64,000 nucleotides of DNA, from positions 71,484-135,483 of the forward strand of contig JAKBJL010000002.1 in NCBI GenBank assembly GCA_021836035.1, given 5' to 3'. The notes under the pieces were generated by a model that saw only the letters and a program-made list of their open reading frames with translations, was not told the origin of the DNA and did no database searches. This DNA comes from a bacterium. Lineage in GTDB: Bacteria > Patescibacteriota > Microgenomatia > JAMCZE01. A program made the translations under genes and the position numbers. Positions 26,726 to 64,000 of this stretch are shown here, one piece after another. Position 1 is the first letter of the stretch; every line of letters begins with the position of its first letter.

Positions 26726-26726
26726 C

Positions 26727-45281: not shown

Positions 45282-46729
45282 TTCCGGTATGCCTGATAAA
45301 TCAGATTAAAATTCTCGCGTATTTTTCTTCCGTCCAGTAACCAAATCGCCGATAAGTAAATTATAGCACCGGTAAGGCCCGCCAAAATGAAAGTGAGGTA
45401 GGTAACCGGCAAAAAGCGCCATAATCCCCAAAGCACCGCAGCCATAATAAGGCTGGCCAGGGCAGGTTTAAGAACGTTCCCCAGAAAATTAAACGTGACC
45501 ACCCGTTTGACCAGATAGATAGTCAGAAATATGGTTAAACTGACTACCAGGGGGGCGACGGCTACCCCGTTATACCCGTAGAGGGAAACAAAAAAGATGG
45601 TAAGCGGCCAGATAAGCAATATCCATAAAACCATCAGCCCCAGGGTTTTGCGGACATTGCCGGTCGCGTCTAAAGCATTAACTAAAATCCCGGAAAGCGA
45701 GGAAACCGCCGCCCCGGCCAGAAAAAAATAAAATAGCGGCAAACCCGGAGCCCATTTCTGGTATTTGGGTAAAAGGAAAAGCAGCTTGTCAATCAATACC
45801 GCCATGAGCGTCAGAACCGGAAACATGATCAGGCTCACCCCATATAAAGAGCGTTCAATCCCCGATTGTAATTTTCCCGCCTGATCCTGGACCCGCGCAT
45901 AGGTCGGAAAAGTAACTTTGGTTACGCTGCTGACAATAAAATTAAAAGGGCTATATGCCCACCTTTGCCACCAGCCGACATAACCCAATCCGACGGTTCC
46001 TACGGCAGGCAAACCCGAGAGAAAAACTACCAAAAGATTATCCTTAATCAAAGCCAGGCCGTTTTTGGCTTGATACATAATTCCGAAAGATAATAACCGC
46101 CGGGCCCGGCCCCAAGACAAACCGAAAGACACTTTCCAGGGCGACAGCAAATAATAAAGAGGCAAGCCTGCCAGGGCGGAAATAAGGTAAGCCCAGGAGT
46201 ATGCGGCCACCTGAAACTTATTATAAGCCAAAATCACGACGATCACGCTGAAAACAAATTGCTCCACGAGAGACGGAATAATCTGGGTTTCAAAAGCGAT
46301 TTTCCTCTCCAGGAGTATTGAGGGAATAGATTTCAGGGAAGAAATGAATAAAACCAGGAGAAAGACATAGTAAAGATTAATGCCGTCAGTTCCCAGCCGC
46401 GCAAAGGAAGCAATAAAAGGAGTTAAAAGCCATCCCACGGCGATGACCAGGAAAACAAGAATTTCCTGGAGCGTAAAGACGGTCCGGAGATCATTTTCTT
46501 CCAGGTTTTCGTGTTTCTGCACCAGCGCGGCTCCCAAACCCAGATCAACGAAAAAATTAAAGAAGGGGTAAATGGCGGAGACGGCAACATAAGTACCGAA
46601 GGCCTGCTGGGACAAAAACAATCCCAGAGGAATAAGCGTCAGCATGGTAATGACCTGGTTGATCATCTGCCGGCTTGTCAGGGCGACAATACTCCGGATG
46701 GTTTTATTTTTTATTTCTTCTGATTCCAT
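45278..46729 (-). CDS. wzx: Wzx-type oligosaccharide/polysaccharide flippase (MOP superfamily)
   Basis: The protein is 483 aa with about 12-14 helices. The N-terminal ...RSIVALTSRQMINQVITMLTLIPLGLFLSQQAFGTYVAVSAIYPFFNFFVDLGLGAALVQ... matches the Polysacc_synt family pattern. Confidence 0.7.
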   Translation of the reverse strand: MESEEIKNKTIRSIVALTSRQMINQVITMLTLIPLGLFLSQQAFGTYVAVSAIYPFFNFFVDLGLGAALVQKHENLEENDLRTVFTLQEILVFLVIAVGWLLTPFIASFARLGTDGINLYYVFLLVLFISSLKSIPSILLERKIAFETQIIPSLVEQFVFSVIVVILAYNKFQVAAYSWAYLISALAGLPLYYLLSPWKVSFGLSWGRARRLLSFGIMYQAKNGLALIKDNLLVVFLSGLPAVGTVGLGYVGWWQRWAYSPFNFIVSSVTKVTFPTYARVQDQAGKLQSGIERSLYGVSLIMFPVLTLMAVLIDKLLFLLPKYQKWAPGLPLFYFFLAGAAVSSLSGILVNALDATGNVRKTLGLMVLWILLIWPLTIFFVSLYGYNGVAVAPLVVSLTIFLTIYLVKRVVTFNFLGNVLKPALASLIMAAVLWGLWRFLPVTYLTFILAGLTGAIIYLSAIWLLDGRKIRENFNLIYQAYRK

Positions 46730-49984: not shown

Positions 49985-52353
49985 TTATTTAGCCGGCTCC
50001 TTTTTTGCCGGAATATTTCCCAAAGGATTCCTCCCACGATGACTAACAAACCCAGGGCAGTCAGCAACCCGCCGTAACGGAAACTTTGAGGGTCATAATT
50101 AAATTCGACGGTATGTTTTCCCGCCGGTACGGGTACAGCCCGGAAAGCATAATCCGCCCGATAAATTTTAGTTCCCCGGCCGTCAATCATCGCCTGCCAG
50201 CCGGGAAAATAAGTGTCGGAGAGAAATAGCAATTTGGGCTTGTCCGCCCTGGTTTCAATTACCACTTTATCGGGTTGGTATTTAATAATCTTCACCGAGG
50301 CTGCGCCTCCTTCTGAGGGGACCAGGCCTGGTTCTTCTTCCAGAATCAAAGTGGAACGCAGATTTGCACCCGGACGATAAATTGCTGCGAGAATTTTTCC
50401 CGGATCCTTCTCTACCAGGTAGTTGTCGGCCAGAAAAGCCCGCGGCAGGACAGTTTTGCGCTCGTAGGCTTTCCATTTAAAATTCTGCCAAAAAAGCGCA
50501 TATTTCTGCGGAGAAAATTTCGCCGTTTCCGGTTCCCAATTGGATTGGGGAAAATCATTCTTATCTAAAATATATTTCACTCCCAAAAGATCAAAAAGTC
50601 GGTTGCGGTAAGCATTATCCTGCGAGGGGAAAACGGCATCTGAACGCAAGACCGACCGGGGGAACTTTCCGTCAGCAGCGGAAGCTAACAATTCTCCGTA
50701 GCGCTTGATATAGAGCGAATCCCATCCCTCAGGGGAATAAACAGCGAAATAAGTCGTAAAATTATTATCGATGTAAGCCGTACCGAAGCCGTAAAAACGG
50801 TCTAAACCCGCTTTCTGCTGTAAAAAATTCGTGACCGGATGATGGGGAAAAACAAATTTCTCCGGCGCAAAGGGCTGGTATTTATTAAAAAAATAAGCAT
50901 ACTCTAACACGGCCAGGGTCGTCAAAACTCCGGCGGATAGCCAAATTATTTTCCGGCGGATTTTAACCGCTAGAAACGCTAAAGCCGTTATCACAAAAGT
51001 AGCGCTGGGCAGAAGCAAATTATTACGGGCGATGCGGAATTCCCAGGTGTGGTGCCCCAAAACTACGACCCACAACAGCAAATATGCCAAGCCGACTGCG
51101 GCTATCGGAAAAATAATATTTCTGTCCGTCTTTTGCTCTGTCCACCAACAATGGAAACCGTATGCCGCAAGGACCACCGCCGAGAATTGGAAAATAAAGA
51201 GGCTGCGCGCCGGTACCCCGGTGGCTAAAATAGGAATACGCAGAAGATGCGGCAGATAAACCAGCGGCGCCAAAGCGAAAAGTAAGCCGACAACTCCCAG
51301 GATAAAGAACAATTTCATCTCCTTGACCGCTAAACTCCGGACCGCCCCGATCAGGGTGAAAACAAAGGCGACAACTCCGAAATAAACCTGGAAATCACCG
51401 TACTGCTTGCCCCAAAAATTTCCGCTCGCCGGATTGCCGAAAAAATCCGGAGCCAGAATAGTAATTAAATTAGACCAGGGGAGGATAAAAGGGGCGAAAA
51501 GCTGCCGTGTTGCTTCCCCTTCCCGGGCGGAATGCAGATATATTTCCAGAGTCGGCAGCAACTGGATTGCCCCGATAAGAAAGCCGCATCCCAGACAAAA
51601 AGCAATTTCTCTAAGCGTCAGTTTCCGCAAGAACATATAAGGGACGGCTATTATCAATAAATAGATATAGGTTTGGGCATGCCCTCCGAAAATGGCAAAA
51701 GCGAATAAAAGCGGCAGGAAAAGCAAATAGATTAAGCGGCGTTTGTTACTGTATTGATTGACCACCCAGAGAATCAGCGGTAGAAAAAGCACGACCTGGC
51801 TGATGATCAGTTGCTCGTGCCATACCACCAGGTAGCCGATATTGGCCATGGCAATGCCCCCGAAAACCGCCGCGGGGCGGGAAAGTTTCAGGGAACGGAA
51901 AAAAAGATAAGTAAACACCGTCAGCAAAAAAGGAAGAGATATAACCAGAGCAATCCAGGCCTTAAGGGTAGGTAAGCATAAGAAAAGGACATTGCCCGGA
52001 AAGAAGATCGAAGATTGCAGGTCGGCAATTAAAGGATAGCCGGAAAAATTATAAGGATCCCAAAGCGGCCAGCGGAAATTTCTGATTTGTTCAAAAGCGA
52101 AAACCTTCCAGGGATACATCTGGCGGATCACATCCGCGGCAATTACCGCTTTATGGGTTGTCCAGGAATTGTACCCGGCGAACCCTCCGGAATTCCAGGG
52201 AAAGAAAAAGGAAACCAGCAAATCTCCGGGAAAAGGAAGCAAACCTTTAAAATAAAACTGCCAGAATACGGCCAGATGGGCAAAAAGAATTATCAGTCCG
52301 ACCAGAACTATCTGGTAGCGGCGAACCAGCTTTTTAATAACAGCCATAGCCAT
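49981..52353 (-). CDS. YfhO-family GT-C membrane glycosyltransferase, paralog Y2
   Basis: The protein is 790 aa. ...LLPFPGDLLVSFFFPWNSGGFAGYNSWTTHK...LWDPYNFSGYPLIADLQSSIFFPGN... and the C-terminal ...YFPGWQAMIDGRGTKIYRADYAFRAVPVPAGKHTVEFNYDPQSFRYGG... match the family. Confidence 0.65.
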   Translation of the reverse strand: MAMAVIKKLVRRYQIVLVGLIILFAHLAVFWQFYFKGLLPFPGDLLVSFFFPWNSGGFAGYNSWTTHKAVIAADVIRQMYPWKVFAFEQIRNFRWPLWDPYNFSGYPLIADLQSSIFFPGNVLFLCLPTLKAWIALVISLPFLLTVFTYLFFRSLKLSRPAAVFGGIAMANIGYLVVWHEQLIISQVVLFLPLILWVVNQYSNKRRLIYLLFLPLLFAFAIFGGHAQTYIYLLIIAVPYMFLRKLTLREIAFCLGCGFLIGAIQLLPTLEIYLHSAREGEATRQLFAPFILPWSNLITILAPDFFGNPASGNFWGKQYGDFQVYFGVVAFVFTLIGAVRSLAVKEMKLFFILGVVGLLFALAPLVYLPHLLRIPILATGVPARSLFIFQFSAVVLAAYGFHCWWTEQKTDRNIIFPIAAVGLAYLLLWVVVLGHHTWEFRIARNNLLLPSATFVITALAFLAVKIRRKIIWLSAGVLTTLAVLEYAYFFNKYQPFAPEKFVFPHHPVTNFLQQKAGLDRFYGFGTAYIDNNFTTYFAVYSPEGWDSLYIKRYGELLASAADGKFPRSVLRSDAVFPSQDNAYRNRLFDLLGVKYILDKNDFPQSNWEPETAKFSPQKYALFWQNFKWKAYERKTVLPRAFLADNYLVEKDPGKILAAIYRPGANLRSTLILEEEPGLVPSEGGAASVKIIKYQPDKVVIETRADKPKLLFLSDTYFPGWQAMIDGRGTKIYRADYAFRAVPVPAGKHTVEFNYDPQSFRYGGLLTALGLLVIVGGILWEIFRQKRSRLNK

Positions 52354-54653
52354 AAGAAAAAACCCAGGCCGGAAATAATTGCACCCGCTAAAAACGATAG
52401 CGGACGATAGGCAAATAAAACCATCTGCTCGCCCGCGGGAAGAGCAACCGCACGGAAAGTATAATCGGCCCGCAATACCGTCCAGGGAATGCCATTAACC
52501 TCGGCCTGCCACCCGGGATAAAAAGTATCGGATAAAAAAAGAAGTTTTGGTTTATCTGTCCTGGTTTTGATCATAACTTCTCCGGGTCCGTAAGAAATTA
52601 TTTCCGCAGAAGCAGCGCCGCCCGCTTCCGGTTTAATACCCGGCTCCCCCTCTAAAATTAGGCGGTTATGATAATCAAAAGCCGGGTCATACAATCTTTT
52701 AATTATCTCCCCTTTTCCCCTAATTATCTCATAATTGCCGGTTAAAAACGCCCGGGGCAGGGCGGTTTTTCTTTCGTAGGCTATCCATTTGTCCTGTTTC
52801 CAGGCGAGGGTATAAAGCTCCGCCGGGAATTTACCCCTGTCGGGTTGCCAATCGGGTTTGATATCTTCCTTTTTATCCAATAAGTATTTAACCCCAAGCA
52901 AATCCAGCAGCCTTTCTTTGCCGGGGCTCTCCGACGGGGGCAGCATGGCATCTGCGCGGGAAAAATCCTGCGTCGCTTCGCCCTTTTGGGACGCAGCCAG
53001 TAACTCTCCGTACCGGCGGATATACAACGGATCGTAGCCCTGGGGATCATAGATGCCGTAATAGGTTGCAAAATTAACATCTATTTGCGCCGTCCCCTGC
53101 CCGGCAAAACGGTTAAAACCTGCCGTCTTTTGCAGAAATTGCAAGACCGGATGCTCCGGATAGGCAAATGCCTGCGGCGCAAACGGCTCAATTTTATTAA
53201 AATAACGGGCATACTCCCAAATCGCCAAAGTAAAAATCGCCAGCGCCGCGAAATACCACAATCTCCGAATTGTCCCCGGTATAGCTAAAATAACCACCGT
53301 GAGGATAAATATTCCCGAAGGCAAGAGAAGATTACGGCGCGAAACGGCCAGCTGTTCGCCCCCTTTTATAAAAACAAAGAGCCAAAGTATCAGATAAGAG
53401 AGGAAAAGCAGCAAAAGAGGGCGGCTGATTTCTTTAAGGACCGCCCCTCTCTTTTTGAGCCACCAATTCAAACCGTAAGCCGCGAGAATACAAAAACCGA
53501 ATTGAAAAAGAAAAATCGTCCGGGCGGCGATACCCGTAGAAAAAATCGGGATCCGCAAGATTATGAAAAGATAGGCCAGCGGAGCAAGAGAAAAGGCTGC
53601 TCCCAAAAAGGAAAGCAGCAAAAAAAAGCGCACATTCCGGTCCGATCCGGATTTAACGATTGCCAGCAAAGCAAAGACTAAAGCGACAATTCCGACATAG
53701 GTCAGCGAATTATGATAATCCCAACCCCAGAAATTCCCCGTCACCGGATTGCCGAAAAAATCCGGTGCCAAGATAGTAATTAAATTACGCCAGGGGAAAA
53801 TATGTTCCGCAAATAATTTAGCGGTATTTGCTCCCTCCCGGGCCGAAAAGAAATATAGCTCCAGGGAGGGTCCCAGTTGTATAGCCGCCAGGATCAGAGA
53901 AAAAAAGACCGTAAAAAGCAGCCACTTTATAGGCACCCGGCGAAACAGAGCAAATAAAAATATAATGGCGTAAAAATACAAGGCCGTCTGGGCGTGGCCG
54001 CCGAAAACAGCTAAAGTCAAAACCGGGGCTAAAAGCAGGAGATAAAAATTCCACTGTTTTTCCCGATATTTGTTGACCAGCCATAGACCCAGCGGTAAAA
54101 ATAACAGCGTCTGGGTAATCACCAGCAGCTCATGCCAGTTAAGAAGATAGGTGATATTGGATACCGCCAATCCCCCGAAAGCCGCAGCGAGGGCTGATAA
54201 ACCCTGCGAGCGCAGAAAAATATAAGTGAAGATTCCGAGCAGAAAAAGCAAAGTCAATACCTGTAAAATCCAGGCGGACAGCGGCGGCATCAGAAAATAA
54301 AAAATATTTCCGGGGAAAAACACCGACGACTGGAGATTGGCTAATAAAGGCGTTCCGGAAAAGTTGTAAGGGTTCCAAAGAGGAAAATGTCCTGCCAGGA
54401 TCTGTTCCATCACCAAATTCTTCCAGGGGAATAATGCCCGGATGGCATCTGAAGCGATTAACTCCTTGTGGGTTGTCCAGGAGTTGTATCCGGCAAACCC
54501 CCCGGAATTCCAGGGAAAATAAAAGGAAACCAGCAAGTCTCCGGGGAAGGGAAGCAAACCCCGGAAATAAAACGGGCGGAAGGAGATAATATTTGCGGCA
54601 ACTAAAAAAAGAACCGGCCAGTGCTGCTTAATAAGATTTTTAAGAAAAGACAT
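52308..54653 (-). CDS. YfhO-family GT-C membrane glycosyltransferase, paralog Y3 (recent tandem duplicate of Y2)
   Basis: ...LLPFPGDLLVSFYFPWNSGGFAGYNSWTTHK... and the C-terminal ...FYPGWQAEVNGIPWTVLRADYTFRAVALPAGEQMVLFAYRPLSF.... It is about 70% identical in protein to Y2, with roughly 85-90% nucleotide identity over patches. The start is placed at MSFLKNL (54653) by alignment to Y2. Confidence 0.65.
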   Translation of the reverse strand: MSFLKNLIKQHWPVLFLVAANIISFRPFYFRGLLPFPGDLLVSFYFPWNSGGFAGYNSWTTHKELIASDAIRALFPWKNLVMEQILAGHFPLWNPYNFSGTPLLANLQSSVFFPGNIFYFLMPPLSAWILQVLTLLFLLGIFTYIFLRSQGLSALAAAFGGLAVSNITYLLNWHELLVITQTLLFLPLGLWLVNKYREKQWNFYLLLLAPVLTLAVFGGHAQTALYFYAIIFLFALFRRVPIKWLLFTVFFSLILAAIQLGPSLELYFFSAREGANTAKLFAEHIFPWRNLITILAPDFFGNPVTGNFWGWDYHNSLTYVGIVALVFALLAIVKSGSDRNVRFFLLLSFLGAAFSLAPLAYLFIILRIPIFSTGIAARTIFLFQFGFCILAAYGLNWWLKKRGAVLKEISRPLLLLFLSYLILWLFVFIKGGEQLAVSRRNLLLPSGIFILTVVILAIPGTIRRLWYFAALAIFTLAIWEYARYFNKIEPFAPQAFAYPEHPVLQFLQKTAGFNRFAGQGTAQIDVNFATYYGIYDPQGYDPLYIRRYGELLAASQKGEATQDFSRADAMLPPSESPGKERLLDLLGVKYLLDKKEDIKPDWQPDRGKFPAELYTLAWKQDKWIAYERKTALPRAFLTGNYEIIRGKGEIIKRLYDPAFDYHNRLILEGEPGIKPEAGGAASAEIISYGPGEVMIKTRTDKPKLLFLSDTFYPGWQAEVNGIPWTVLRADYTFRAVALPAGEQMVLFAYRPLSFLAGAIISGLGFFLWLWLLLKSWFAATR

Positions 54654-56833
54654 AAGGTTACCGCCAACCCTACAGTGCTTAGCCACAAGCCGTAACGAAA
54701 ACTGTCCGGTTCGTAGCTAAATACTACCTCATTTTGACCCGGGGGTACAGATACCGCCCGGAAAGCATAATCCGCCAGCAAAATTTTTGTGGCTTTGCCC
54801 CCGACCGTTGCCTTCCACCCCGGATAATAGGTGTCGGAGAGGAAAAGCAAACTCCGGCCGGGGGAGTCGGTCTTTATGGAAACTTTCCCGGGGGTATAGT
54901 TTGTAATTTCCGCGGTACCCGGGCCGATTACCCCGGATAACGGTTCGTTTAGTATCACTGTTTTGCTTAGGTCCGTTGCCCCGGCATAAAAAGTTCTGAT
55001 CGTTTCCTCTTTACGTCTGACCAGATAATTTTCCGCTAAAAAGACCCTGGGCAAAGCTTCCCGATTTTCATAAACGGCTGCTTCTCCCCAATGTTTTAAA
55101 AAATTAAACTGCTCCGGAGGATATTTCAGCAAATTCGGTTTGTCGGTTTCTTGCGGATTTTCGGCCCGGTCGAAGAAGTACTTAACTCCCAATAAATTTA
55201 ATAATTTACGGCGATAGGGGGTATCCGCTTCGGTTAAAAAAATATCCGCCCGGTTTACTTTCTCCGGAATTGTCCCCGTCTCCGCCGAAGCGATCAATTG
55301 GCCATACCAGCGCGGCGATAGACTATCGTAACCCTCCGGACTATAAATCCGGTAGAAAGTAGCAAAATTGGTAGCGAAGCGGGAGGAACCATATCCGAAA
55401 ACCCGGTTATATCCGCCGTAATTTTGCACAAAACCCAGCAGGGGATGACGGGGATAAAAATACTTGCTGTCTCCGAAGGGGCTGACCTTTAAAAGAAAGA
55501 TACCCCCGCTGACCAGCAGCAGAAGAAGCACGGCTCCGGAAAATAATTTCCGGGGAAGTAGCAGGCTGAAGATAAAGAGCAAAAGCCACGCCAGCTGTAA
55601 TAAAGTGTTGCGGACCGCCGTCGACGATTGCCGCCCGAAAAACAGAAGTCCTAACGCCGCTGCTAAAATTATCAGTGTGATGGGAAGAACGCGGCGGGGG
55701 TTTTTCGGCAAAACTTTATTTAATCCCCAGCCAGCCAGAACCGCGGCGGCAAATTGAAAAAGAAAAAGGCTGTTCCAGGGGCCGCCGCTGGAGAGAATCG
55801 GGATACGCAAAAACCTCGGCAAGTAAGCGATCGGATTCCGGAAAGAGAGTAATAAACCGGCTGCGGCTACGGCAGCCCAAAAGGCGATTTCCTTCTGCTT
55901 TCTCAGGGAGAACAACGCGTAAACGGCAAAAATCAGCGGGATAACCCCGAAATAAGCGTTTACCCCGCTGTAATCCTGTCCGCCTTCGTAATTATTGGTT
56001 GCCGGACTGCCCCAAAAGTCCGGAGAAATTATTTGCACCAGGTGCTTCCATTCGACAATTGAACCGTTATAGGCATCATTTGTAGCTTTCCCCTCCCGCA
56101 GCGAGTTTTGGTAAAGCTCGGCTGTCGGCAACAGCTGCACGGCACAAACCATTAGCGTTAATAAAACCGCCGCTGTTAACGGCAGCATTCTTTTTATGCC
56201 CGCCCGGAATAAAAAATAGCTGCCGGCGATGAGAAATCCGAAGACAGCATCCTGCGGATACCCTCCCAGAACGTTCAAAACCAATAGCGGCGAGAGAAAG
56301 GCGATGAATTTTAACCCGCCTATCTTGGTATCTGCGAACTTATCCACCACCAGAAGTTCCAGCGGCAGCCAAATTAAAGGGTGCAGATACACCCCCCAAA
56401 AATAGCGGGTGGCAAAAAAGGCGCAAAAGATCAAAGTCAATGCTCCGAAAAGGGCAGCCGTTTTTGACTGCAGTTTATTTTTAAGAAACCAGAACATAAA
56501 AATGCCCGCTAAAACCGGTTGGGAAAATATATAAATAGACCAGGCAGCTATTGCCGGCAGGAAAAGAAATCCCCAGCTTAGGGGATAAAAAACCGAAGAC
56601 TGGAAATTAGCCAAGAGCGGCTGACCGGAAAAGTTATAAGGGTTCCAAAGGGGCCATGTTCCCTGCCGCAAAAGGGAAAAAGCATATTCTTTCCAGATAA
56701 AAATCTGGCGCAGGGCGTCAACCGCCAGCAATTCTTTATGTGCCACAAAAGGGGTAAAGCCCGGCCAGGAGGGCGTATTCCAGGGGAAAAACCAGAAAGG
56801 CAAAAGATTGGTCTGTAAAGGCAACCAGTTCAT
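54602..56833 (-). CDS. YfhO-family GT-C membrane glycosyltransferase, paralog Y4 (lacks the N-terminal helix seen in Y2/Y3)
   Basis: The protein is 743 aa and begins directly at MNWLPLQTNLLPFWFFPWNTPSWPGF..., which corresponds to residue ~35 of Y2/Y3. The C-terminal ...YYPGWKATVGGKATKILLADYAFRAVSVPPGQNEVVFSYEPDSFRYG... matches the family. It overlaps the upstream gene by 4 nt. Confidence 0.6.
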   Translation of the reverse strand: MNWLPLQTNLLPFWFFPWNTPSWPGFTPFVAHKELLAVDALRQIFIWKEYAFSLLRQGTWPLWNPYNFSGQPLLANFQSSVFYPLSWGFLFLPAIAAWSIYIFSQPVLAGIFMFWFLKNKLQSKTAALFGALTLIFCAFFATRYFWGVYLHPLIWLPLELLVVDKFADTKIGGLKFIAFLSPLLVLNVLGGYPQDAVFGFLIAGSYFLFRAGIKRMLPLTAAVLLTLMVCAVQLLPTAELYQNSLREGKATNDAYNGSIVEWKHLVQIISPDFWGSPATNNYEGGQDYSGVNAYFGVIPLIFAVYALFSLRKQKEIAFWAAVAAAGLLLSFRNPIAYLPRFLRIPILSSGGPWNSLFLFQFAAAVLAGWGLNKVLPKNPRRVLPITLIILAAALGLLFFGRQSSTAVRNTLLQLAWLLLFIFSLLLPRKLFSGAVLLLLLVSGGIFLLKVSPFGDSKYFYPRHPLLGFVQNYGGYNRVFGYGSSRFATNFATFYRIYSPEGYDSLSPRWYGQLIASAETGTIPEKVNRADIFLTEADTPYRRKLLNLLGVKYFFDRAENPQETDKPNLLKYPPEQFNFLKHWGEAAVYENREALPRVFLAENYLVRRKEETIRTFYAGATDLSKTVILNEPLSGVIGPGTAEITNYTPGKVSIKTDSPGRSLLFLSDTYYPGWKATVGGKATKILLADYAFRAVSVPPGQNEVVFSYEPDSFRYGLWLSTVGLAVTLCLFLKILLSSTGRFFF

Positions 56834-58638
56834 TTATCCGTTACTAAGGAAACCAGATCGGTATTCGCCGGTACTTCCGCTTCGATCAGGCGGAAAGCGG
56901 GAGTATTATCAGGATAAGAGATAGTTTGCCAGACTTTCATCCGCGGCCTGACTTCCGCAGGTTTATAACTCCTTTGAAGATCCCCTTTAATAAAACCGGG
57001 CGGCAAATCTTCATCCCAGTCGATAAGCAGCAGGCGCTTAGACGGTGCCTCAAGAAAACGCGAGGCGTCATAAATTTTACCCCAGGCAATCGATCCGGGA
57101 AAATAATAATTCGCAAAACTGCGGACATGAACAAAACCCTCGCTGGTTGCCGGATACCTTACGGCCTCTTGCCAGTAAAGTGCGGGCGGAAAACTCTGAT
57201 AAAAAAGGAAAAAAATGTAAGGCGAACGGTCGGGATGAGGTACCACGACCATATCAAATTCCTTTTGCCGGCTGATTGCCGATTTCACCGCTTCTCTTAA
57301 GCCATAATTCCAGGCTCCGGCGCGCTGGGCCGCTTCCAGGGGTCCGTAATTCCAAATCTCGGGAGATGTTTGGGGGAAGTGCACAAAATAAGCATCCACA
57401 AAAAGCAAATTGCCGTATATATAGGCGCCGCCCAGAAACGCCAGGCCGGCCAAGGACAGAACCCGGGACAAATTTCTTAATATCCGGTAAATAAACAACA
57501 ATCCGTAGGCGGAAATGAGGGGAATTACTCCCGCGGCGAAAATCGACCGGCTGAAATGGGGCGCATCCCGGGTTATGGTTGCCGGCAACGGAGCTAACAG
57601 CAACCACGAAAGTAAAATCCATTTATTAGACAGCCGGCTATTTAACAAACCTAAGATCCCGGCAAGAAGCAAAAAGTAATCGAGGTAATTTAAGTTGCCC
57701 CGATCGGGAAGATTATGTTGAATGTTAGTACCGCCGCCTTCTACTAAAAATTGGGGCGAGAAAAAGTTGAGATAATTATTGGCGGATTGCTGCAGCATAT
57801 AAACCAGTCGGTTGTGAAGCAGGGGAACCAGCGGCTCCAATATTCCGTGCGGTTGACTACGCGGTAAATCAATAATTTTATTTAATTGAGCCCGGTCGCT
57901 TAATAAGCCGATTCCGGAAATTTTCACCACATCCGCCCCGGTTAAAGTGGTCAGTAAACTTAAGGCCCACAAAACGATAAAAACTAGCCCGGTTGTTAGG
58001 CTTAACCAACCCCGCGGCAGATTTTTCCTTTGCAGAAAGAGAAAAATAACCAGGAATGCCGGAATGAAAACATGGCTGGCATGATAGGAAAAAAGGGTAG
58101 CGGCCATTAGTAAAGCCGATAAAACCAGTAAAACACGGTGCCTGTCAGAATCATAAAAAGAAAGCACAGCGCCTAAAAATAAAGCCAAAGCAAAGTTTGC
58201 TTCATAAGCCGCCCTGCTGAAAAAAACGCTCCAGGGCAAAAAAGCGAAAAGGGCTGCCGAAATCAGCGCCAAAATATCCCGGTATTTATCCTCCGGATAG
58301 ATTTTGCGGGCCAGGAAAAAAAGCAGAATAACGCTAAGTACCCCGGAGGTGGCGGATACAAAGCGAACGGCAAACTCCGTTAAAGAAAACAGCTTTACCG
58401 CCGGAATAGTAGCAAAAACGTAAAGCGGCAATTTCCAGTCGCCGAAAGATTCGAGCGACAACGGAAAAAACCGCCCGTACTCATCCCGGCCGGTGGTTAA
58501 GAGGGAATAGGCCGTGTAGCCGATTGAGGCCTCGTCGCGGTTTAATCCTACCGGAACGGTCCCCAGCTCGTAAAAACGCAATAATATAGCCATCAGCAGG
58601 ACTAACCCCAGGGAAAAACCCAGCAATTTTTTGCTCAT
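56830..58638 (-). CDS. GT-C glycosyltransferase, PMT_2/ArnT family, paralog A5
   Basis: ...LRFYELGTVPVGLNRDEASIGYTAYSLLTTGRDEYGRFFPLSLESFGDWKLPLYVFA... carries the family motif. The protein is 602 aa with a C-terminal soluble domain. Confidence 0.7.
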   Translation of the reverse strand: MSKKLLGFSLGLVLLMAILLRFYELGTVPVGLNRDEASIGYTAYSLLTTGRDEYGRFFPLSLESFGDWKLPLYVFATIPAVKLFSLTEFAVRFVSATSGVLSVILLFFLARKIYPEDKYRDILALISAALFAFLPWSVFFSRAAYEANFALALFLGAVLSFYDSDRHRVLLVLSALLMAATLFSYHASHVFIPAFLVIFLFLQRKNLPRGWLSLTTGLVFIVLWALSLLTTLTGADVVKISGIGLLSDRAQLNKIIDLPRSQPHGILEPLVPLLHNRLVYMLQQSANNYLNFFSPQFLVEGGGTNIQHNLPDRGNLNYLDYFLLLAGILGLLNSRLSNKWILLSWLLLAPLPATITRDAPHFSRSIFAAGVIPLISAYGLLFIYRILRNLSRVLSLAGLAFLGGAYIYGNLLFVDAYFVHFPQTSPEIWNYGPLEAAQRAGAWNYGLREAVKSAISRQKEFDMVVVPHPDRSPYIFFLFYQSFPPALYWQEAVRYPATSEGFVHVRSFANYYFPGSIAWGKIYDASRFLEAPSKRLLLIDWDEDLPPGFIKGDLQRSYKPAEVRPRMKVWQTISYPDNTPAFRLIEAEVPANTDLVSLVTDK

Positions 58639-60212
58639 TAAATTCCCTCCAGTTTTACTACGGAAATATTTCCCGGAAAATCTTTCTGCTCAAGAATCTT
58701 CCCCATTCTCTGTAGCCCTTTTTGCCACTCTGCCCTCGCTGCCGGCCTGTCCCTGTCCGGCTCTAAGATTAAATAGTATAACCCTCCGATCTTTCGGGGA
58801 ATTTTAACCTGCTCTCCGATTCCTAACGGCGGTACCGCCACATTTAAATTCTGCGGCGCATAGCCGTAAGTTTTCCGGCCGTACCAATAAAAATCATATT
58901 GCCAGATATAATCATAGACCGGCGGGGTATAGGCAAAAAAAGCAAATTTATTTCCTCCTGCCGAATGGTACACGTAATCTACCACCCGGATTTGGTTGCG
59001 GAGAGTCCCGGTATCCCCCGGACCGGGATTGGTTAGGCCGGCTAAACCTTCGCCGCTGACCAGGCTGGCCGAGAGCCCCCAAATGCTCAGGCCCAGTATT
59101 AAATAACGGGTCAGATTGGCGCTCTGCCAAAGCACGGCAAAGGGGATAACGATTAAAAGGGCATAAACTACCGGTAATCCGGCACGGTACCAAGCCCAAA
59201 GCGGTCCCGGATATAAGCTGAAACCAAGGTAAAATACCGCCAGAACCGTAAGGAGAATTTTTAAAACATTTAAACAGGGTACTAATTTTTGGCGATAAGC
59301 GGTAATCCAACCCCAGAGGGCCAGCAAGGTCACCGGCAAAATAAAATACCAGGCAGATAGCGGCATGGCCATTTGGATAAAATCGGCGGCCATGGTTTTA
59401 GCGCGTTCCCAGAACCGAAGATAGAGAGGCAGGGCTGAGCCGTAAAGGCTGCGGTTCTCGCCGGTCAGAAAATGCAGCAAACTGTTAGCCATTAAAAAGC
59501 GGTGCCGGATATCGAAAATCACCTGGGGTAAAAATGTCAGCAACAGGATACCTAAACCCAGGAAAAAATAGCGGGACTTTAAAGTATTTGTTTTTTTAAA
59601 AATTAACAGCAGCGCCAATATCACCGGAAGAGTAAAAACGGCAAAGCCGATCTCCAACTGGAAAAAGACACCAACCAATAACCACCAAAGCAGCCAAAAA
59701 ACATCCCGCCGGTTAACCATAATTTCGTAGGCGCACCAGATAAAGAAAAAGAACAGATAGGCTAGCGGCAGAGGACTTAAAACCACCTGAGAACCGCCGA
59801 TAAAATGCGGGCTCAGCAGCAGAAAAATATAAGTGGCGACAGCTTCCTTTTCTCCCCATATCCGACGCACGATAAAGTAAGCCGCAACTGTTGCCGCCAG
59901 ACTAAAAATTACCAGATAGAGCATATTAGCTGCGGGATTACCGCCGCTTAAAAGGAACGGCACGGCTAAAAACCAGGTCCAGAGCGGTCCCATCAGCACC
60001 CCTTCCAAACCGCTGTATCGGCTGATCAGGTTGAGCTTATGATCTACAACCAGCTGCTTGACCATGATCATATCCAGGCCCTGATCAAAACCGAAAAAAA
60101 CGCCGTTGTGGATGAGCGGAATAATCCGCAGGAATGCTGCCAGCAGAAAAACAACTATTAAAACAAGTGGTTTAATCTTTGAACGCATAGCAGTCATACA
60201 AATCATTAGCAT
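58638..60212 (-). CDS. Polytopic membrane protein, FGFDQ-motif family (putative GT-C), paralog F1
   Basis: The protein is 524 aa. ...LRIIPLIHNGVFFGFDQGLDMIMVKQLVVDHKLNLISRYSGLEGVLMGPLWTW... is shared with 61061..62581 and 62594..63895. Confidence 0.4.
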   Translation of the reverse strand: MLMICMTAMRSKIKPLVLIVVFLLAAFLRIIPLIHNGVFFGFDQGLDMIMVKQLVVDHKLNLISRYSGLEGVLMGPLWTWFLAVPFLLSGGNPAANMLYLVIFSLAATVAAYFIVRRIWGEKEAVATYIFLLLSPHFIGGSQVVLSPLPLAYLFFFFIWCAYEIMVNRRDVFWLLWWLLVGVFFQLEIGFAVFTLPVILALLLIFKKTNTLKSRYFFLGLGILLLTFLPQVIFDIRHRFLMANSLLHFLTGENRSLYGSALPLYLRFWERAKTMAADFIQMAMPLSAWYFILPVTLLALWGWITAYRQKLVPCLNVLKILLTVLAVFYLGFSLYPGPLWAWYRAGLPVVYALLIVIPFAVLWQSANLTRYLILGLSIWGLSASLVSGEGLAGLTNPGPGDTGTLRNQIRVVDYVYHSAGGNKFAFFAYTPPVYDYIWQYDFYWYGRKTYGYAPQNLNVAVPPLGIGEQVKIPRKIGGLYYLILEPDRDRPAARAEWQKGLQRMGKILEQKDFPGNISVVKLEGI

Positions 60213-61083
60213 AATAAGGAACTATTAAACGCGGCAAACCAAAAGTTTTTATCGCACCTTGCGCTACCGCGGCTAATTTTTTGTTGATCGCCTTTAGGCG
60301 GGAGGCCAGATAACCCAGGGAAAGGCGGCGCCAATGCGGGCGGAAGATTACTTTGGAAAAACCGATGCGCTGAAGATAACTATCCGCTGTCCGGCGGCTT
60401 AAAAAGACCCGGTGCATTTCCATATACCAGGGCCATTTACTGCCCATAAATCTCGCCAGGGGGCTCTCCGGATCAACAGTTGAAAAGGCCAATACTCCCC
60501 CGGATTTTAAATACCGGCAAACTTTTTTTAACTCGGCTACGGGGTCGGCAAAGTGTTCGATTACGTCCCACATGGTAATAACATCAAAACTGTTTTCAGG
60601 AAATACGCCCGAGGCGAAAGGTTTATTAATTAAATCAATTTGGTAGTTCTTCAGGGCAAACTCTACCGCCCAACGGTTGGGCTCCAGTCCCCGGGCGTTC
60701 CAACCGCGATCGCGGGCAATTTTGACAAAAAGCCCGGTATTGGTGCCCACGTCCAACAGCTTTCCCCGCTCCGGGTAAATTTTTTCCAGCTTAGAGAGAT
60801 AAATTTCAAAAGTCTTGCGGCGGGCTTCTTGTTCCGCAAAATAAAGGGGATCCTGGGAAACTTCATAATAGGTACTGATCCGTTCCTGGGATAGGTTTTC
60901 ATTGCTGTAGATCATTCCGCAAAGGTCGCATTTTACAATCGGTCCGTGCATCCCGAAGCCGCAGTTGGTACAGGAAAATTCCCCGGCCTTCAGGGAACCG
61001 GTATTATTAGTCGGAGGATAAATCAGCTTTACCGCCCCTTGGCCGCAAAAACGGCAATGATCAGTTTTTTTCCGTACATCCAT
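60172..61083 (-). CDS. SAM-dependent methyltransferase with N-terminal Cys4 zinc-ribbon
   Basis: N-terminal C-x2-C...C-x2-C (CRFCGQG...CTNCGFG) and a further C-x2-C (CDLCG). Motif I LLDVGTNTGLF. ...FDVITMWDVIEHF...LKSGGVLAFS. The architecture resembles the zinc-binding domain plus Methyltransf_23 of NDP-sugar/polysaccharide methyltransferases. Confidence 0.6.
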   Translation of the reverse strand: MDVRKKTDHCRFCGQGAVKLIYPPTNNTGSLKAGEFSCTNCGFGMHGPIVKCDLCGMIYSNENLSQERISTYYEVSQDPLYFAEQEARRKTFEIYLSKLEKIYPERGKLLDVGTNTGLFVKIARDRGWNARGLEPNRWAVEFALKNYQIDLINKPFASGVFPENSFDVITMWDVIEHFADPVAELKKVCRYLKSGGVLAFSTVDPESPLARFMGSKWPWYMEMHRVFLSRRTADSYLQRIGFSKVIFRPHWRRLSLGYLASRLKAINKKLAAVAQGAIKTFGLPRLIVPYYANDLYDCYAFKD

Positions 61084-62581
61084 AGGCGACTCTCTTCTGA
61101 ACGGTAAATTGCCCGAATCTCTTTTCGGAAATTAAATTGGATTCCCGGTTTTCGCCGTCATAAAACTCACTGACAAACCATCCGGCGATACCTCTTTGCG
61201 GCTCCGCAATAACATACCGCCGGCAAGTCCCCTCCGCCCCCTCGGGTAAACTGCCCGGAAACTGTGGATTATTGCCCCAGGAAAAAGCAGGAAAGTAGCC
61301 GTAGGATTTTCCGTATTGCCGGTAAAGATAAGCCCAGGTGGTTTGAATCTTGAGCGGCATGGAAAGAGTTTTAATCTGGAATTTTTCTCCCGCGGCTTCA
61401 CGGTAAGTATAATCCACAACCGCCCGTTCATCCCGCAGCATCATGCCGTTTTGAACCGCCAATAATCCCCAGACCAGCCCGTTTCTTCCCTGGCTAAGCA
61501 ATAATTTAATATTACCAAGGAGTATGAGGATAATCAGCAAAGTTAAAACCGCTTTATTCCTTATTAGCTTCAACATTAAAAATACCGTAAGGAGGGTAAG
61601 GGGTATGGCAACGCCGATATTGGTCATAAAATAACCCAGGGTGGCAATATTGGCAAAATACAGAACCAGCGGACCGGCAACCCAGACCAGTAAAAAAAGC
61701 ATTTCCCGGCGGTAGCGTTGCTCTTTTAAAGCAAGATAAAGGAGAAGGAAAAAAACCAATGCCGAGAAAAATAAGCTGAAACCAAATAAATTAAGATAAA
61801 TATGCTGGAAATATTTCTCGAGAATGACGGTTAGATGATCGCTTACCCGGTAAAGTTCCTGCCCGGAGGAAGCAAAAAACTTTAACAAGGATACGGTCAT
61901 TCTGAGCGGATACTTAATTTCAGCTAGAAGATAATTTCCGATTGTCCCCCCAAAAACCAGGAGGGAAATAAGCAGCCACTTCCGGTTAATTTCAACAGTC
62001 TTGTGATATAAAAATAAATTGACCGGGGGAATAATCGCCAGGTATATTAAAAAAAATTCGAAATGGATAGCCGTCCCCAGGCCCGCGGCTAACAGCACCA
62101 GGCCCCAGGGTTTGTTTTTTAAAAAGAAAAGCAGGCAGCCGAGGTAAAATATCAAAACGGATATCATTGCGGGTGAAGGATTGGCCGCGTAATAGGAATA
62201 CTGGTATTGCTCAAAGGAAAAAGCATAAAAAAGGGCCGCCAGGAGTCCCGCCTTTTTCCCGAACAAAAGGCTTCCGATAAGATAGACCAGAAATACCCCG
62301 CCGGCATTTAAGACCATAAGCGCGGCAAACGGCAATTGCGGATCGCCGCGGGACAAAGCGTAAAAAGGGCCGATTAAATAATAGTAAAGCGGCCCCTGGA
62401 AGACACCGCTAATATCCGTGGGCGGACCGAGAAGCTTAATACTGCGATCCCCTATCCATTGCCGGGAAACATAAGCATCCCTCGCCTGATCAAAGCCGAA
62501 ATAAATATTGCCCGGGAAGTAGACAAAACGATAGAGCAGAGCGCCAGCAAAAACCGCTAGCAGGATAAGCCAATACTTCAC
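61061..62581 (-). CDS. Polytopic membrane protein, FGFDQ-motif family (putative GT-C), paralog F2
   Basis: ...LYRFVYFPGNIYFGFDQARDAYVSRQWIGDRSIKLLGPPTDISGVFQGPLYYYLIGPFY.... Confidence 0.4.
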   Translation of the reverse strand: MKYWLILLAVFAGALLYRFVYFPGNIYFGFDQARDAYVSRQWIGDRSIKLLGPPTDISGVFQGPLYYYLIGPFYALSRGDPQLPFAALMVLNAGGVFLVYLIGSLLFGKKAGLLAALFYAFSFEQYQYSYYAANPSPAMISVLIFYLGCLLFFLKNKPWGLVLLAAGLGTAIHFEFFLIYLAIIPPVNLFLYHKTVEINRKWLLISLLVFGGTIGNYLLAEIKYPLRMTVSLLKFFASSGQELYRVSDHLTVILEKYFQHIYLNLFGFSLFFSALVFFLLLYLALKEQRYRREMLFLLVWVAGPLVLYFANIATLGYFMTNIGVAIPLTLLTVFLMLKLIRNKAVLTLLIILILLGNIKLLLSQGRNGLVWGLLAVQNGMMLRDERAVVDYTYREAAGEKFQIKTLSMPLKIQTTWAYLYRQYGKSYGYFPAFSWGNNPQFPGSLPEGAEGTCRRYVIAEPQRGIAGWFVSEFYDGENRESNLISEKRFGQFTVQKRVAYGCTEKN

Positions 62582-62593
62582 TAGGCTATTCTA

Positions 62594-63895
62594 TCAGAAA
62601 TTTTTAACTACCTTAATATCCCCGAAAGTTGCCCCGCTTTCAGAGCTTAAATCCCCGGGGAGAAAGAGGGTGTAACGGGAATTAACAGCGCCGGATTGAG
62701 CCTGAGGATCGCGTAGCCAAAACAGGTAGGGAAAACCGTTATTTAATCCCGGTGCCGCCATAACCCCGTAAGTCACCTGGGGGCACTGACAGTTTGCCAA
62801 AACATAATTTACCGCCCGCTCTTTAGAAAGGAGGCTATAGGGATTTGCCGCGACCATAAAACTCCTGAGATTAAGATAAAAAAACACCGCGGCTGCGATT
62901 GGCAATAACGCCCGTCCGACCCCGCTTCCGGCCAGACGACGGGCGAGGGTAGCGTAAATTAAAATAATCGCGGGAAAAGTTAACAAAAAATAATATTCCG
63001 GAACGGGACCGGGATAAAAAGAGAACACTAAAAGCGGGACGGCGATCCAGATTAAATATTCCCGGATGTGCTGCCGGGCCAACCATATTACCGCCGCTAT
63101 CATAATTATCCCCTGCCAGGCACCCGGTAAGCCGAAAATGGCCAAAAAATTCTGGATATTAATCCTGGCCAGGAGCAGCATTTTAAAAATAAACGGATAA
63201 GCTGCGCCCGGCTGCGCGCCCGCCGTAAAAATCTCCCCAAATCTCTGAACCTCCCCGAATCCGTGCCTCAGTTCAAAAAGAAGCGAAGGCAGGATAAGGA
63301 GGATAAAACCGGCTAACCCCAGATAAACCGAGCTACGGGAGGCTTTGAATTTATGGCCCAAGCCCTCCGCAAGAGATACCGGCAACATTAACATTCCGGT
63401 AGGATGAAAATTCCAGCTGACGCCTGATAATAAGAAACTCACGGGGATATTCTGCCGGAATTCCCAGGCTAATAACGCCAGGAAAATCAAGGGATTGGAA
63501 GGCGCGCTACCCCGGTCTACTAAAATAATCCGGAAGGAAAAAATATAGATAAAGAGGGCCCATATCCCGCCGAGCCGATAGATCAAAACCATGCTCCCGA
63601 GAGCGAAAAACATCTGCAAGACATTTCCCGCTAACGGGTTCATTCCCCCCAGAAAATAAAAAACGCTTAACAGGTAATAATACCCCGGGCCGGTAAATAT
63701 CCCGCCGAGGGAAATTTGCTGCCCGATGAGGGAAATTTTATGATCCACTAAAAAACTTTTTATCCACCAAGCGGCAGCTTCCTGGTCAAAATCAAAGCCG
63801 GCAAAGCGCTCAATTTGATAAAAGCGAATAGCTAAACCCAAAGCCATAAATCCGGCCGCCAAAAAAAACTTCAGAAAACGCTTATTTTTAATCAC
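62594..63895 (-). CDS. Polytopic membrane protein, FGFDQ-motif family (putative GT-C), paralog F3; GTG start or 5' end outside window
   Basis: ...IRFYQIERFAGFDFDQEAAAWWIKSFLVDHKISLIGQQISLGGIFTGPGYYYLLSVFY.... The codon at 63893-63895 is GTG. The frame stays open to the window edge (no in-frame stop in 63896-64000), so the true N-terminus is uncertain. Confidence 0.4.
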   Translation of the reverse strand: MIKNKRFLKFFLAAGFMALGLAIRFYQIERFAGFDFDQEAAAWWIKSFLVDHKISLIGQQISLGGIFTGPGYYYLLSVFYFLGGMNPLAGNVLQMFFALGSMVLIYRLGGIWALFIYIFSFRIILVDRGSAPSNPLIFLALLAWEFRQNIPVSFLLSGVSWNFHPTGMLMLPVSLAEGLGHKFKASRSSVYLGLAGFILLILPSLLFELRHGFGEVQRFGEIFTAGAQPGAAYPFIFKMLLLARINIQNFLAIFGLPGAWQGIIMIAAVIWLARQHIREYLIWIAVPLLVFSFYPGPVPEYYFLLTFPAIILIYATLARRLAGSGVGRALLPIAAAVFFYLNLRSFMVAANPYSLLSKERAVNYVLANCQCPQVTYGVMAAPGLNNGFPYLFWLRDPQAQSGAVNSRYTLFLPGDLSSESGATFGDIKVVKNF

Positions 63896-64000
63896 AGTTT
63901 TATGATGCCGACGGCACCGAAGCGGGTTGCCAGAGCATTTGTATCTACTAAAAAATAAGGCAGGATAATCTTGTAAGTTCGGTGGGTGGCAACGGACATG

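Follow-up and report, generated by a model that had tools for sequence, protein, structure and literature searches.

What does a run of tandem membrane proteins with a shared acidic first-loop motif do in a patescibacterial genome, and why is a methyltransferase gene embedded in it? The CPR/Patescibacteria live uncultured as episymbionts with tiny genomes, and almost nothing is known of their cell surface; our literature searches found nothing on GT-C glycosyltransferases in Patescibacteria and nothing specific on CPR mannosyltransferases and the cell envelope. The locus lies toward one end of the window, that is, the whole 64,000-nucleotide stretch of DNA that was analyzed. An earlier note had described it as three tandem paralogs (F1, F2, and F3) of an unnamed FGFDQ-motif family with a zinc-ribbon methyltransferase (MT) inserted between F1 and F2, and all four open reading frames are present at those positions on the minus strand. 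The features are as follows.

49981..58638, minus strand: genes downstream of F1 on the same strand, encoding an "RDE" PMT_2 protein and three YfhO-family GT-C proteins
56830..58638, minus strand: the canonical "RDE" PMT_2 protein
58638..60212, minus strand: F1, putative GT-C (PMT_2) membrane glycosyltransferase paralog; longest open reading frame 524 aa, 516 aa from the ATG at 60188
60072..60095, minus strand: F1 first-loop motif FGFDQGLD (F32 to D39), with D35 invariant and D39 nearly so
60172..61083, minus strand: MT, Cys4 zinc-ribbon class I SAM-dependent methyltransferase, 303 aa
60733..60756, minus strand: MT SAM-binding motif I, LDVGTNTG (residues 110 to 117)
60919..61056, minus strand: MT N-terminal zinc ribbon, C10xxC13 and C52xxC55 with a C38xxC41 insert
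61061..62581, minus strand: F2, putative GT-C (PMT_2) paralog, 506 aa, GTG start
62477..62500, minus strand: F2 motif FGFDQARD
62594..63895, minus strand: F3, putative GT-C paralog, 433 aa, GTG start
63779..63799, minus strand: F3 motif GFDFDQE (DxD form)
63892..64000, minus strand: 3' end of F4, a fourth paralog (473 aa on the contig), motif FGFDYDQE

MT overlaps the end of F2 by 23 nt and the start of F1 by 17 to 41 nt, and the values of 23 and 41 nt given in the earlier note are right for the longest open reading frames. The F1 start is probably the ATG at 60188, which would reduce the MT/F1 overlap to 17 nt, because the upstream codons (MLMICMTA) are an other-frame reading of the conserved MT C terminus (YYANDLYDCYAFKD). 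A conserved N-terminal extension of F1 orthologues (M.M..MTAM) was considered as a functional signal and rejected as an out-of-frame shadow of that same C terminus. The GTG start of F3, with a frame open to the window edge, had been noted correctly. Reading upstream from this GTG, the parent contig has no start codon before an in-frame stop 120 nt away; the GTG overlaps the TGA stop of the upstream F4 gene (GTGA) and is backed by the N termini of orthologues. The public gene call for F3 begins at an ATG 16 codons downstream and cuts into TM1, which explains why an exact-sequence look-up of the GTG-start protein returned no record.

Pairwise BLASTP confirmed the kinship of F1 with F2 (E of 4.8e-13, 24% identity over 244 aa), F1 with F3 (2.6e-12, 29% over 303 aa), and F2 with F3 (1.4e-8, 33% over 97 aa); judging from these alignments, the similarity is homology and not chance. 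The count of three did not hold. The family has at least six paralogs here, three of them just outside the window (locus L001, positions 5771-7192, 4287-5774, and 954-2441), and they stand within a supercluster of at least 20 GT-C genes. The nearest paralog of F2 is the protein at L001 4287-5774, and F3, which like F5 has no match of its own in the Pfam search, is linked to the PMT_2-positive F4 (L001 5771-7192) with an E value of 4e-46.

Nor is the family unnamed. F1 and F2 score 35.5 and 30.4 bits against Pfam PF13231 (PMT_2), above its gathering cut-off of 26.1; 31 of the 37 F1 orthologues match it as well, and NCBI names the homologues GT39/ArnT family. NCBIfam yielded no match for F1 or F3 and trace matches only for F2. 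Neither Pfam PMT (PF02366) nor MIR was matched in F1 to F3 at E≤1, PF02366 being matched by other window proteins (12914..14281 and 27955..29481). The ArnT equivalog model (NCBIfam PRK13279) likewise found no match in F1 to F3; it gave a trace match to the neighbor at 56830..58638, with 11 bits against a cut-off of 567. The GT39 label is thus a generic, PMT_2-based name that carries no evidence of protein O-mannosylation. Since a phmmer search of F1 against PDB sequences returned chance matches only, a fold search was used, and it gave structural matches to AftA, AftB, Emb, and PimE. The F proteins are multipass membrane proteins with a GT-C fold, their predicted helix number falling in the range of 8 to 13 usual for it, and their identity to all solved GT-C enzymes is 8 to 14%. 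By sequence, all three F proteins belong, as divergent paralogs, to a single GT-C subfamily (Pfam PMT_2, ArnT/PMT-like). With about 2,400 clusters (50% identity) at E≤1e-30, this is a large subfamily; it has a clear signature and contains no characterized member, which makes it a reasonable target for subfamily naming.

The acidic first-loop signature proposed for these proteins is borne out by an invariant acidic residue after TM1. All 37 orthologues keep F32, D35, G63, and G67, and at least 90% of them keep each of Q36, G37, D39, and P68. A broader set, 144 relatives taken from clusters at 50% identity, retains D35 throughout (144/144) and D39 in 131, together with R/K228 (140/144), H229 (129/144), and E179 (117/144). 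Q36, however, is found in 78 of the 144; the FGFDQ motif is therefore present only as a subfamily form, the general pattern being D-x-G-x-D. The residue after the loop-1 Asp is Q in F1 to F5, E in F6, and Q, V, H, S, or N family-wide, so that F6 carries D-E where the other paralogs have D-Q; F3 and F4 have a DxD in this loop. The six paralogs agree without exception at R21, F32, D35, L54, G63, G67, and P68 (numbered as in F1, counting from MRSKIKP). The family signature further includes FDxRH and a C-terminal "EP" domain, and an FQxE motif is also conserved. In hhalign comparisons, the F profile set D-Q on the D-E of the RDE motif of the protein at 56830..58638 at a weak 23% probability, and its alignment with the PMT/PMT_2 paralog at 12914..14281 ran from TM2 onward only, with loop 1 uncovered.

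From predicted helices and the positive-inside rule, F1, F2, and F3 are each predicted to have 11 TM helices and a cytoplasmic N terminus, the K/R-rich short loops all being on the N-terminal side. This topology would place the D-x-G-x-D loop with its invariant Asp on the outer face of the membrane, and FDxRH, FQxE, and the C-terminal alpha/beta domain of about 120 aa likewise outside. With a first-loop motif that is both conserved and predicted to be extracytoplasmic, and with a known family that is a glycosyltransferase family, F1 to F3 are very likely GT-C glycosyltransferases. We give little credence to the idea that they share the fold without the activity, either as PIG-U-like noncatalytic scaffold subunits or as transferases of nonsugar groups.

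The identification of MT as a Cys4 zinc-ribbon SAM methyltransferase stands, and the enzyme belongs to class I. It contains three CxxC pairs, of which C10/C13/C52/C55 form the Cys4 site and are invariant in 22 homologues; the Chisholmbacteria homologue lacks the C38xxC41 insert, and three others have a different residue in place of C41. L110, D111, G113, T116, and G117 of SAM motif I are also invariant among the homologues. Pfam Methyltransf_23 (PF13489) matches MT with 88 bits against a cut-off of 27, and PF08421 and PF08484 do not match it at E≤1. An AF2 model (pLDDT 90) matched many class I methyltransferases in Foldseek at an E value of 1e-12. The leading matches of MT, in sequence as well as in structure, are generic (a Thermotoga methyltransferase, phosphoethanolamine N-methyltransferases, and UbiG); by E value, the best structural ones are small-molecule methyltransferases, and the top whole-length TM-scores are to MtmC (0.58) and KijD1 (0.57). 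A profile of MT homologues also matched TcaB9 and, over positions 4 to 242 including the zinc region, KijD1 (5t64; E of 4e-5).

A gene-neighborhood survey of 80 loci showed that the association of MT with glycosylation genes is conserved. In the window and in loci L002, L003, L008, L010, and L011, the F1 orthologue is the gene that MT immediately precedes and overlaps; another GT-C gene follows MT in L009, L006, and L012, and a convergent gene of unknown type in the CPR locus L007. L004 and L005, which hold distant family members (<30% identity), have no adjoining MT. Of the 43 closest F1 orthologues, at least 26 match a listed MT homologue in the length of the longest contig, and the order F1 to YfhO is kept in other genomes. 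Among orthologues, MT is more conserved (57 to 64% identity) than F1 (44 to 50%), and its position is retained. In Chloroflexota, 48 loci have the MT homologue behind a DPMS/ArnC-like GT2 gene, the two separated by a median of about 13 nt. The gene at +1 of the Chloroflexota MT encodes a "DPDxWWH" multi-TM protein family (alignment A6), for which hhalign against the F family gave a probability of 3.8% and searches of Pfam and PDB sequences found no relation. This gene order backs the earlier suggestion that MT serves a glycosylation pathway, and on balance we regard it as more likely than not that MT is functionally tied to one.

These genes lie within a very large gene cluster for a cell-surface glycan. 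The supercluster extends over more than 70 kb and contains GT2 genes resembling PpgS/AglJ/DPMS/ArnC (17681..18370, 24367..25140, 36045..36746, and L001 2511..3281), a GT2+GtrA_DPMS_TM fusion gene at the start of L001, and an MptA_B-family gene. The parts of three-component systems, i.e., a polyprenyl-P-sugar-synthase-like GT2, a GtrA flippase domain, and GT-C proteins (F1 to F6), are thereby colocated. A Wzm/Wzt exporter (1533..3613), whose Wzt carries a Wzt_C cap-binding domain, has two further methyltransferase genes beside it (7390..8190 and 8220..8864), and an epimerase/4,6-dehydratase-family gene lies at 5287..6210. A soluble enzyme, which the earlier note had called odd among membrane proteins, is not so in this setting: GT2 and GT4 genes are interspersed as well, and so are three further genes for methyltransferases. 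Taken together, the earlier interpretation is partly supported.

The explanation that we favor, and consider quite probable as a whole, is that the F proteins are GT-C paralogs and MT an auxiliary enzyme in a pathway that makes a surface glycan from lipid-linked sugars. Cytoplasmic GT2s of the DPM-synthase/PpgS/ArnC type would charge polyprenyl phosphate with sugars, and the polyprenyl-linked sugars would then be flipped across the membrane. Outside, each GT-C paralog would add one sugar, with its own linkage, to a growing surface glycan or glycoconjugate; action on the acceptor would fall to the loop-1 Asp, and holding the lipid phosphate to the R/H motif. MT would assist this pathway as an auxiliary enzyme in the cytoplasm, translationally coupled to F1, and we infer that it most likely methylates the sugar of F1's branch, as a nucleotide sugar or a polyprenyl-phosphate sugar. 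Action specifically on the lipid-linked donor is a tentative and unlikely refinement. It is similarly unlikely that MT methylates a polyprenyl-phosphate-linked monosaccharide at the cytoplasmic face, after which a dedicated GT-C protein transfers the premethylated sugar outside; if true, this would be a new route for installing O-methyl sugars on surface glycans and a "four-component" methyl-glycosylation module (GT2 synthase, methyltransferase, flippase, and GT-C) common to two phyla. In Microgenomates, F1 would play this dedicated part; in Chloroflexota, it would fall to the "DPDxWWH" protein, whose family is unplaced.

Other roles for MT have to be weighed against this explanation. Like enzymes of the TcaB9/KijD1/MtmC/TylC3 type, it could methylate nucleotide sugars at C or O; the product, a cytoplasmic NDP-sugar that is methylated or methyl-branched, would be used by ordinary GT2 or GT4 enzymes, and the link to F1 would be operonic only. 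The shared architecture (an N-terminal Cys4 zinc site and a class I core), the KijD1 and TcaB9 profile matches, the best whole-length TM-scores, and the dehydratase-like gene in the window all speak for such a role. Yet identity to these enzymes is only 14 to 16%, MT lacks their Pfam families (PF08421/PF08484), and at 303 aa, against about 416 aa, it largely lacks the C-terminal sugar-binding domain; moreover, the dehydratase-like gene is 54 kb distant, and the constant partner in Chloroflexota is a polyprenyl-P-sugar-synthase-like GT2 rather than NDP-sugar enzymes. We therefore hold this role to be improbable.

We hold it equally improbable that MT acts on a finished or growing glycan at the cytoplasmic face and not on the monosaccharide donor of F1. 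Precedents are WbdD, which adds a terminal cap controlling chain length and export, and AglP, which decorates a lipid-linked oligosaccharide; the Wzm/Wzt exporter with its cap-binding domain fits such a function, and Methyltransf_23-type enzymes are common at such loci. MT, however, has no WbdD-like kinase or coiled-coil domain, lies about 57 kb from the exporter, and in most CPR loci has a GT-C gene as its coupled neighbor, and the two methyltransferases beside Wzm/Wzt are better cap candidates. A Wzt-recognized chain terminator was likewise judged less likely from this distance and these better-placed enzymes. A methyltransferase of small molecules, lipids, or macromolecules, merely carried in a dense CPR operon, would account for the generic top matches and for a window packed with overlapping genes throughout. 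That reading seems to us distinctly improbable, given a glycosylation linkage that recurs in two distantly related phyla, where the partner differs (a downstream GT-C gene in CPR, an upstream DPMS-like GT2 gene in Chloroflexota), and the greater conservation of MT in a kept position.

The pairing of the MT gene with glycosylation genes, conserved in two phyla, offers a concrete lead on how methylated sugars might enter polyprenyl-phosphate-dependent glycosylation. The size of the supercluster and its number of GT-C enzymes suggest a complex surface glycoconjugate, built outside the membrane, which could mediate host attachment. None of this overturns current understanding.

Among known systems, ArnT (CAZy GT83; Cupriavidus metallidurans, 5EZM/5F15) shares only 12 to 14% identity with the F proteins and has 13 TM helices against the 11 predicted here, and the signature of D-x-G-x-D, FDxRH, and "EP" domain is the F family's own. 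To our knowledge, CPR bacteria lack LPS, so that the F acceptor is surely not lipid A. CAZy GT39 enzymes (yeast Pmt1/2/4 and bacterial Rv1002c) have a loop-1 Asp-Glu (DE), whereas the second residue is variable in the F family, and F1 to F3 lack the PF02366 and MIR domains. The assembly of mycobacterial and corynebacterial LM, LAM, and arabinogalactan (MptA/B/C, PimE, EmbA-C, and AftA-D) resembles what we propose in using many GT-C paralogs, one linkage each, with polyprenyl-P-sugar donors outside the membrane; the genes for that assembly, however, are dispersed rather than gathered in one supercluster, the phylum differs, and we know of no methyltransferase coupled to its GT-C enzymes. TcaB9, KijD1, and MtmC, which are sugar C3-methyltransferases, share with MT an N-terminal Cys4 zinc site ahead of a class I SAM domain; MT (303 aa against 394 to 419 aa in such targets) lacks a C-terminal domain of about 110 aa and has no adjacent NDP-4-keto-sugar genes. 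Three-component systems (GtrA/GtrB/Gtr*, CsbB/GtcA/YfhO, and Citrobacter PPPRS/MATE/GT136) have the same parts list of GT2, flippase, and GT-C, but with one GT-C gene per system in place of many in tandem. GtlB, a GT-C enzyme, has essential Asp residues in its first loop (PMC5836110), and in the Citrobacter three-component locus an auxiliary soluble epimerase remodels the lipid-linked sugar and so sets the identity of the sugar transferred (PMC11127046). Here the auxiliary enzyme would be a methyltransferase, for which the cited literature on three-component systems describes no counterpart. The F proteins are thus divergent copies of a known GT-C enzyme type, and their linkage to MT is a useful lead rather than a new kind of system.

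The four open reading frames (ORFs) claimed in the earlier note were all recovered on the minus strand in an ORF listing, and the overlaps of 41 nt (MT/F1) and 23 nt (F2/MT) hold for the longest ORFs:

58638..60212, minus strand: F1, membrane paralog, longest ORF, 524 aa
60172..61083, minus strand: MT, zinc-ribbon methyltransferase, ORF of 303 aa
61061..62581, minus strand: F2, membrane paralog, ORF of 506 aa with a GTG start
62594..63895, minus strand: F3, membrane paralog, ORF of 433 aa with a GTG start

To compare these genes, we used all-against-all BLASTP among the 49 long ORFs of the window. F1 matched F2 and F3 with E values of 4.8e-13 and 2.6e-12, and F2 matched F3 with 1.4e-8, at 24 to 33% identity; by sequence, the three are true paralogs of old divergence. 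They are not a set of three, as had been described, but at least six, with three more on L001, a database contig stretch that runs past the window's edge. L001 belongs to NCBI assembly GCA_027371575.1, contig DAHXMT010000003.1 (235,983 bp), in which the MT sequence is deposited. One GT2 gene and one MptA_B-family gene lie among these additional paralogs:

L001 5771-7192: paralog F4, motif FGFDYDQE
L001 4287-5774: paralog, motif SFFYDQGRD
L001 954-2441: paralog, motif FLGDEGRD

F1 and F2 scored above the Pfam gathering threshold for PMT_2 (PF13231), and PMT_2 matches were present in 31 of 37 F1 orthologues; F3 had no PMT_2 match of its own in the Pfam search. NCBI calls homologues "glycosyltransferase family 39 protein" or "ArnT family glycosyltransferase." The homologues with named hosts are in Microgenomates-group, Gottesmanbacteria, and Chisholmbacteria MAGs, which places the window in a CPR/Patescibacteria genome. 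Topology was derived from the helices of a predicted model and per-column K/R frequencies. The K/R-rich short loops (107-113, 158-163, 197-205, 299-302, and 355-361) all fall on the side of the basic N terminus. The predicted arrangement has 11 TM helices with the N terminus inside, and would place the first loop, the FDxRH segment, the YPGP loop, and a C-terminal alpha/beta domain of ~120 aa outside, matching the topology expected of GT-C enzymes. The GT-C part of the earlier interpretation is right, but the description of the family as unplaceable was wrong at the Pfam and GT-C clan level. Membership tests placed the F proteins in no specific CAZy family, and the family is without any characterised member.

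Across 1.84 billion cluster representatives, exhaustive profile searching recovered 2,397 proteins with E ≤ 1e-30; at the looser cut-off of E ≤ 1e-10 the number was 6,479. The motif block reported for the paralogs is present, with R21, F32, D35, L54, G63, G67, and P68 invariant across the six (F1 numbering from MRSKIKP). We further aligned F1 with the 143 newly returned representatives from the top 150 (n = 144). D35 was kept in all 144 and D39 in 131; position 37 was G in 121 and A in 23. G63 (142), G67 (141), E179 (117), F225 (141), R/K228 (140), and H229 (129) were also conserved, and Q36 occurred in just 78. Since D35, G37, and D39 are kept while Q36 varies, the family-wide signature is D-x-G-x-D, and the string "FGFDQ" is one subfamily's version of it. 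Members of the F3/F4 type show the classical DxD form (D-F/Y-D-Q), and F6, the outermost paralog, has D-E where the others have D-Q. In a weak hhalign placement, D-Q was set against RDE in the canonical PMT_2 protein encoded by 56830..58638. First-loop Asp motifs are regarded as characteristic of GT-C enzymes, and in GtlB, itself a GT-C enzyme, first-loop Asp residues are essential (PMC5836110).

The four ATGs in frame at the head of F1 (60212, 60206, 60197, and 60188) result from TAT-G and AAT-G codon junctions within the strongly conserved C terminus of MT, YYANDLYDCYAFKD. Many F1 orthologues align with the same "M.M..MTAM" extension, which is therefore a frame shadow of the MT C terminus, so that its recurrence is a sign of the overlap between MT and F1 and not of a peptide. 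The extension MLMICMTA (60172..60212) was accordingly rejected as a real peptide, being an out-of-frame reading of MT. The true F1 start is probably 60188 (MRSKIKP), and the overlap would then be 17 nt. Extension beyond position 64000 fixed the F3 start: on L001, the frame read upstream from the GTG meets a stop after 120 nt with no intervening start codon, the GTG shares GTGA with the TGA stop of the upstream gene, and orthologues in four other genomes align at the basic N terminus and TM1. Thus, F3 starts at GTG 63895. Its public call is an ATG start of 417 aa that cuts into TM1. Public calls of F3-type proteins begin too far downstream in L002 (7893-9125, at "MDFDQD"), a homologous locus, and in L001 (7237..8490, at M17), both deleting TM1; such calls may explain some members without precomputed Pfam hits.

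MT (METHYLTRANSFERASE) is a class I enzyme of Methyltransf_23 (Pfam, 88 bits). Its homologues share invariant motifs (motif I LDVGTNTG and DVIEH) and invariant C10/C13/C52/C55, and a third CxxC pair (C38/C41) lies within an insert that a Chisholmbacteria homologue lacks. The AF2 model (pLDDT 90) matched generic class I methyltransferases by E value. MT could be an NDP-sugar C-methyltransferase: its best whole-length overlaps were MtmC and KijD1 (TMq 0.57 to 0.58), which are zinc-containing sugar C3-methyltransferases, and the profile of its homologues reached TcaB9 and KijD1, zinc region included. MT lacks the C-terminal domain and Pfam families of these enzymes, so it lies outside the sugar C3-methyltransferase family. 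It could also be a glycan-capping methyltransferase.

MT could, alternatively, be an unrelated passenger, and here gene order bears on the question. In the context survey proposed earlier, a same-strand GT-C gene followed MT in 9 of 10 informative loci, two contigs ending at MT being left out of the count. MT lay directly upstream of and overlapping an F1 orthologue in the window/L001, L002 (48% F1 identity), L003 (Chisholmbacteria, 35%), L008, L010, and L011; the gene downstream was another F-family member in L009, a PMT_2 protein in L006, a YfhO protein in L012, and a convergent unknown 9-TM protein in L007. Among the 43 nearest F1 orthologues, 26 or more have a longest contig equal in length to that of a listed MT homologue, and MT is more conserved (57 to 64% identity) than F1 (44 to 50%). 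In the loci inspected, distant F relatives (<30% identity) had no adjoining MT. A role for the methyltransferase in the F glycosylation pathway is plausible, with synteny support, but unproven. The contigs of L006 to L013 and L015 are titled "uncultured Gammaproteobacteria bacterium," with genes 45 to 60% identical to the Microgenomates cluster; these titles are probably a taxonomic mislabel in TPA assemblies.

A genome scan unexpectedly found full-length MT homologues with the zinc ribbon (~40% identity) in Chloroflexota. In 48 loci, a 245-aa GT2 closest to dolichol-phosphate mannose synthase (5mlz, E 6e-32) and ArnC is immediately upstream on the same strand (median gap, ~13 nt). In 17 of these, a ~490-aa multi-TM protein lies at most two genes downstream, immediately so in 14:

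~6001-6890 in L014-L085: MT homologues
L014:4455-5192: GT2
L071:7019-8521 and L060:6925-8406: multi-TM proteins

In the first loop of the multi-TM protein, the motif DPD(M/F)WWHLRTG is invariant. The protein has no detectable Pfam, PDB-sequence, or F-family relationship; it may represent an unnamed GT-C family. This grouping of a GT2, the zinc-ribbon MT, and a multi-TM protein across phyla is the most interesting point left by the analysis.

Nearly the entire window and at least 10 kb past its edge form one minus-strand glycan supercluster (~6188..64000 plus L001 1..10000; >70 kb on a single strand of a CPR genome). For so small a genome, the share taken up by this cluster is unusually large. 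It holds ~23 GT-C-like genes (~12 PMT_2-type, 4 YfhO, 3 PTPS_related, 1 MptA_B-like, and 3 unplaced multi-TM), with ~8 GT4 and ~9 GT2 genes (several DPMS/PpgS/AglJ/ArnC-like), three methyltransferases besides MT, a Wzx-like flippase, Wzm/Wzt with Wzt_C, and an epimerase/dehydratase. Soluble enzymes among membrane proteins are thus usual in this cluster, and the position of MT, previously called odd, is unremarkable. Multi-TM ORFs 22916..24370, 26727..27965, and 41811..43535 (13, 9, and 13 hydrophobic segments) had no Pfam match at E ≤ 0.001; each is a candidate for one more unplaced protein of GT-C-like or polymerase/ligase type. The Wzm/Wzt ABC exporter (1533..3613; Wzt with a cap-binding Wzt_C) shares the cluster with the Wzx-type flippase (45278..46729). 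Two methyltransferases near Wzm/Wzt could supply a chain-terminating methyl cap:

7390..8190: FkbM-type methyltransferase
8220..8864: Methyltransf_23 methyltransferase

GC content is 0.37 to 0.39 in 1..10000 versus 0.45 to 0.50 elsewhere in the window, and this end (GT4s, Wzm/Wzt, epimerase) may be of different origin.

Going beyond the homology, the fold, and the conservation of motifs and gene order shown here, we infer that the F paralogs would be extracytoplasmic glycosyltransferases using polyprenyl-phosphate-sugar donors, fed by the cluster's DPMS-like GT2s and flippases, each responsible for its own sugar or linkage in a surface glycan. Such a pathway would resemble mycobacterial LM/LAM assembly or three-component glycosylation systems. 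Most simply, MT would be a cytoplasmic auxiliary enzyme in the branch that F1 serves and would methylate the sugar while it is carried by a nucleotide or by a lipid. ArnD and DprE1/E2 have similar auxiliary roles in other GT-C pathways. A close precedent for an auxiliary soluble enzyme is the Citrobacter O2 locus, in which ORF13, a predicted cytoplasmic epimerase, alone sets the pentofuranose added by a GT-C enzyme (PMC11127046).
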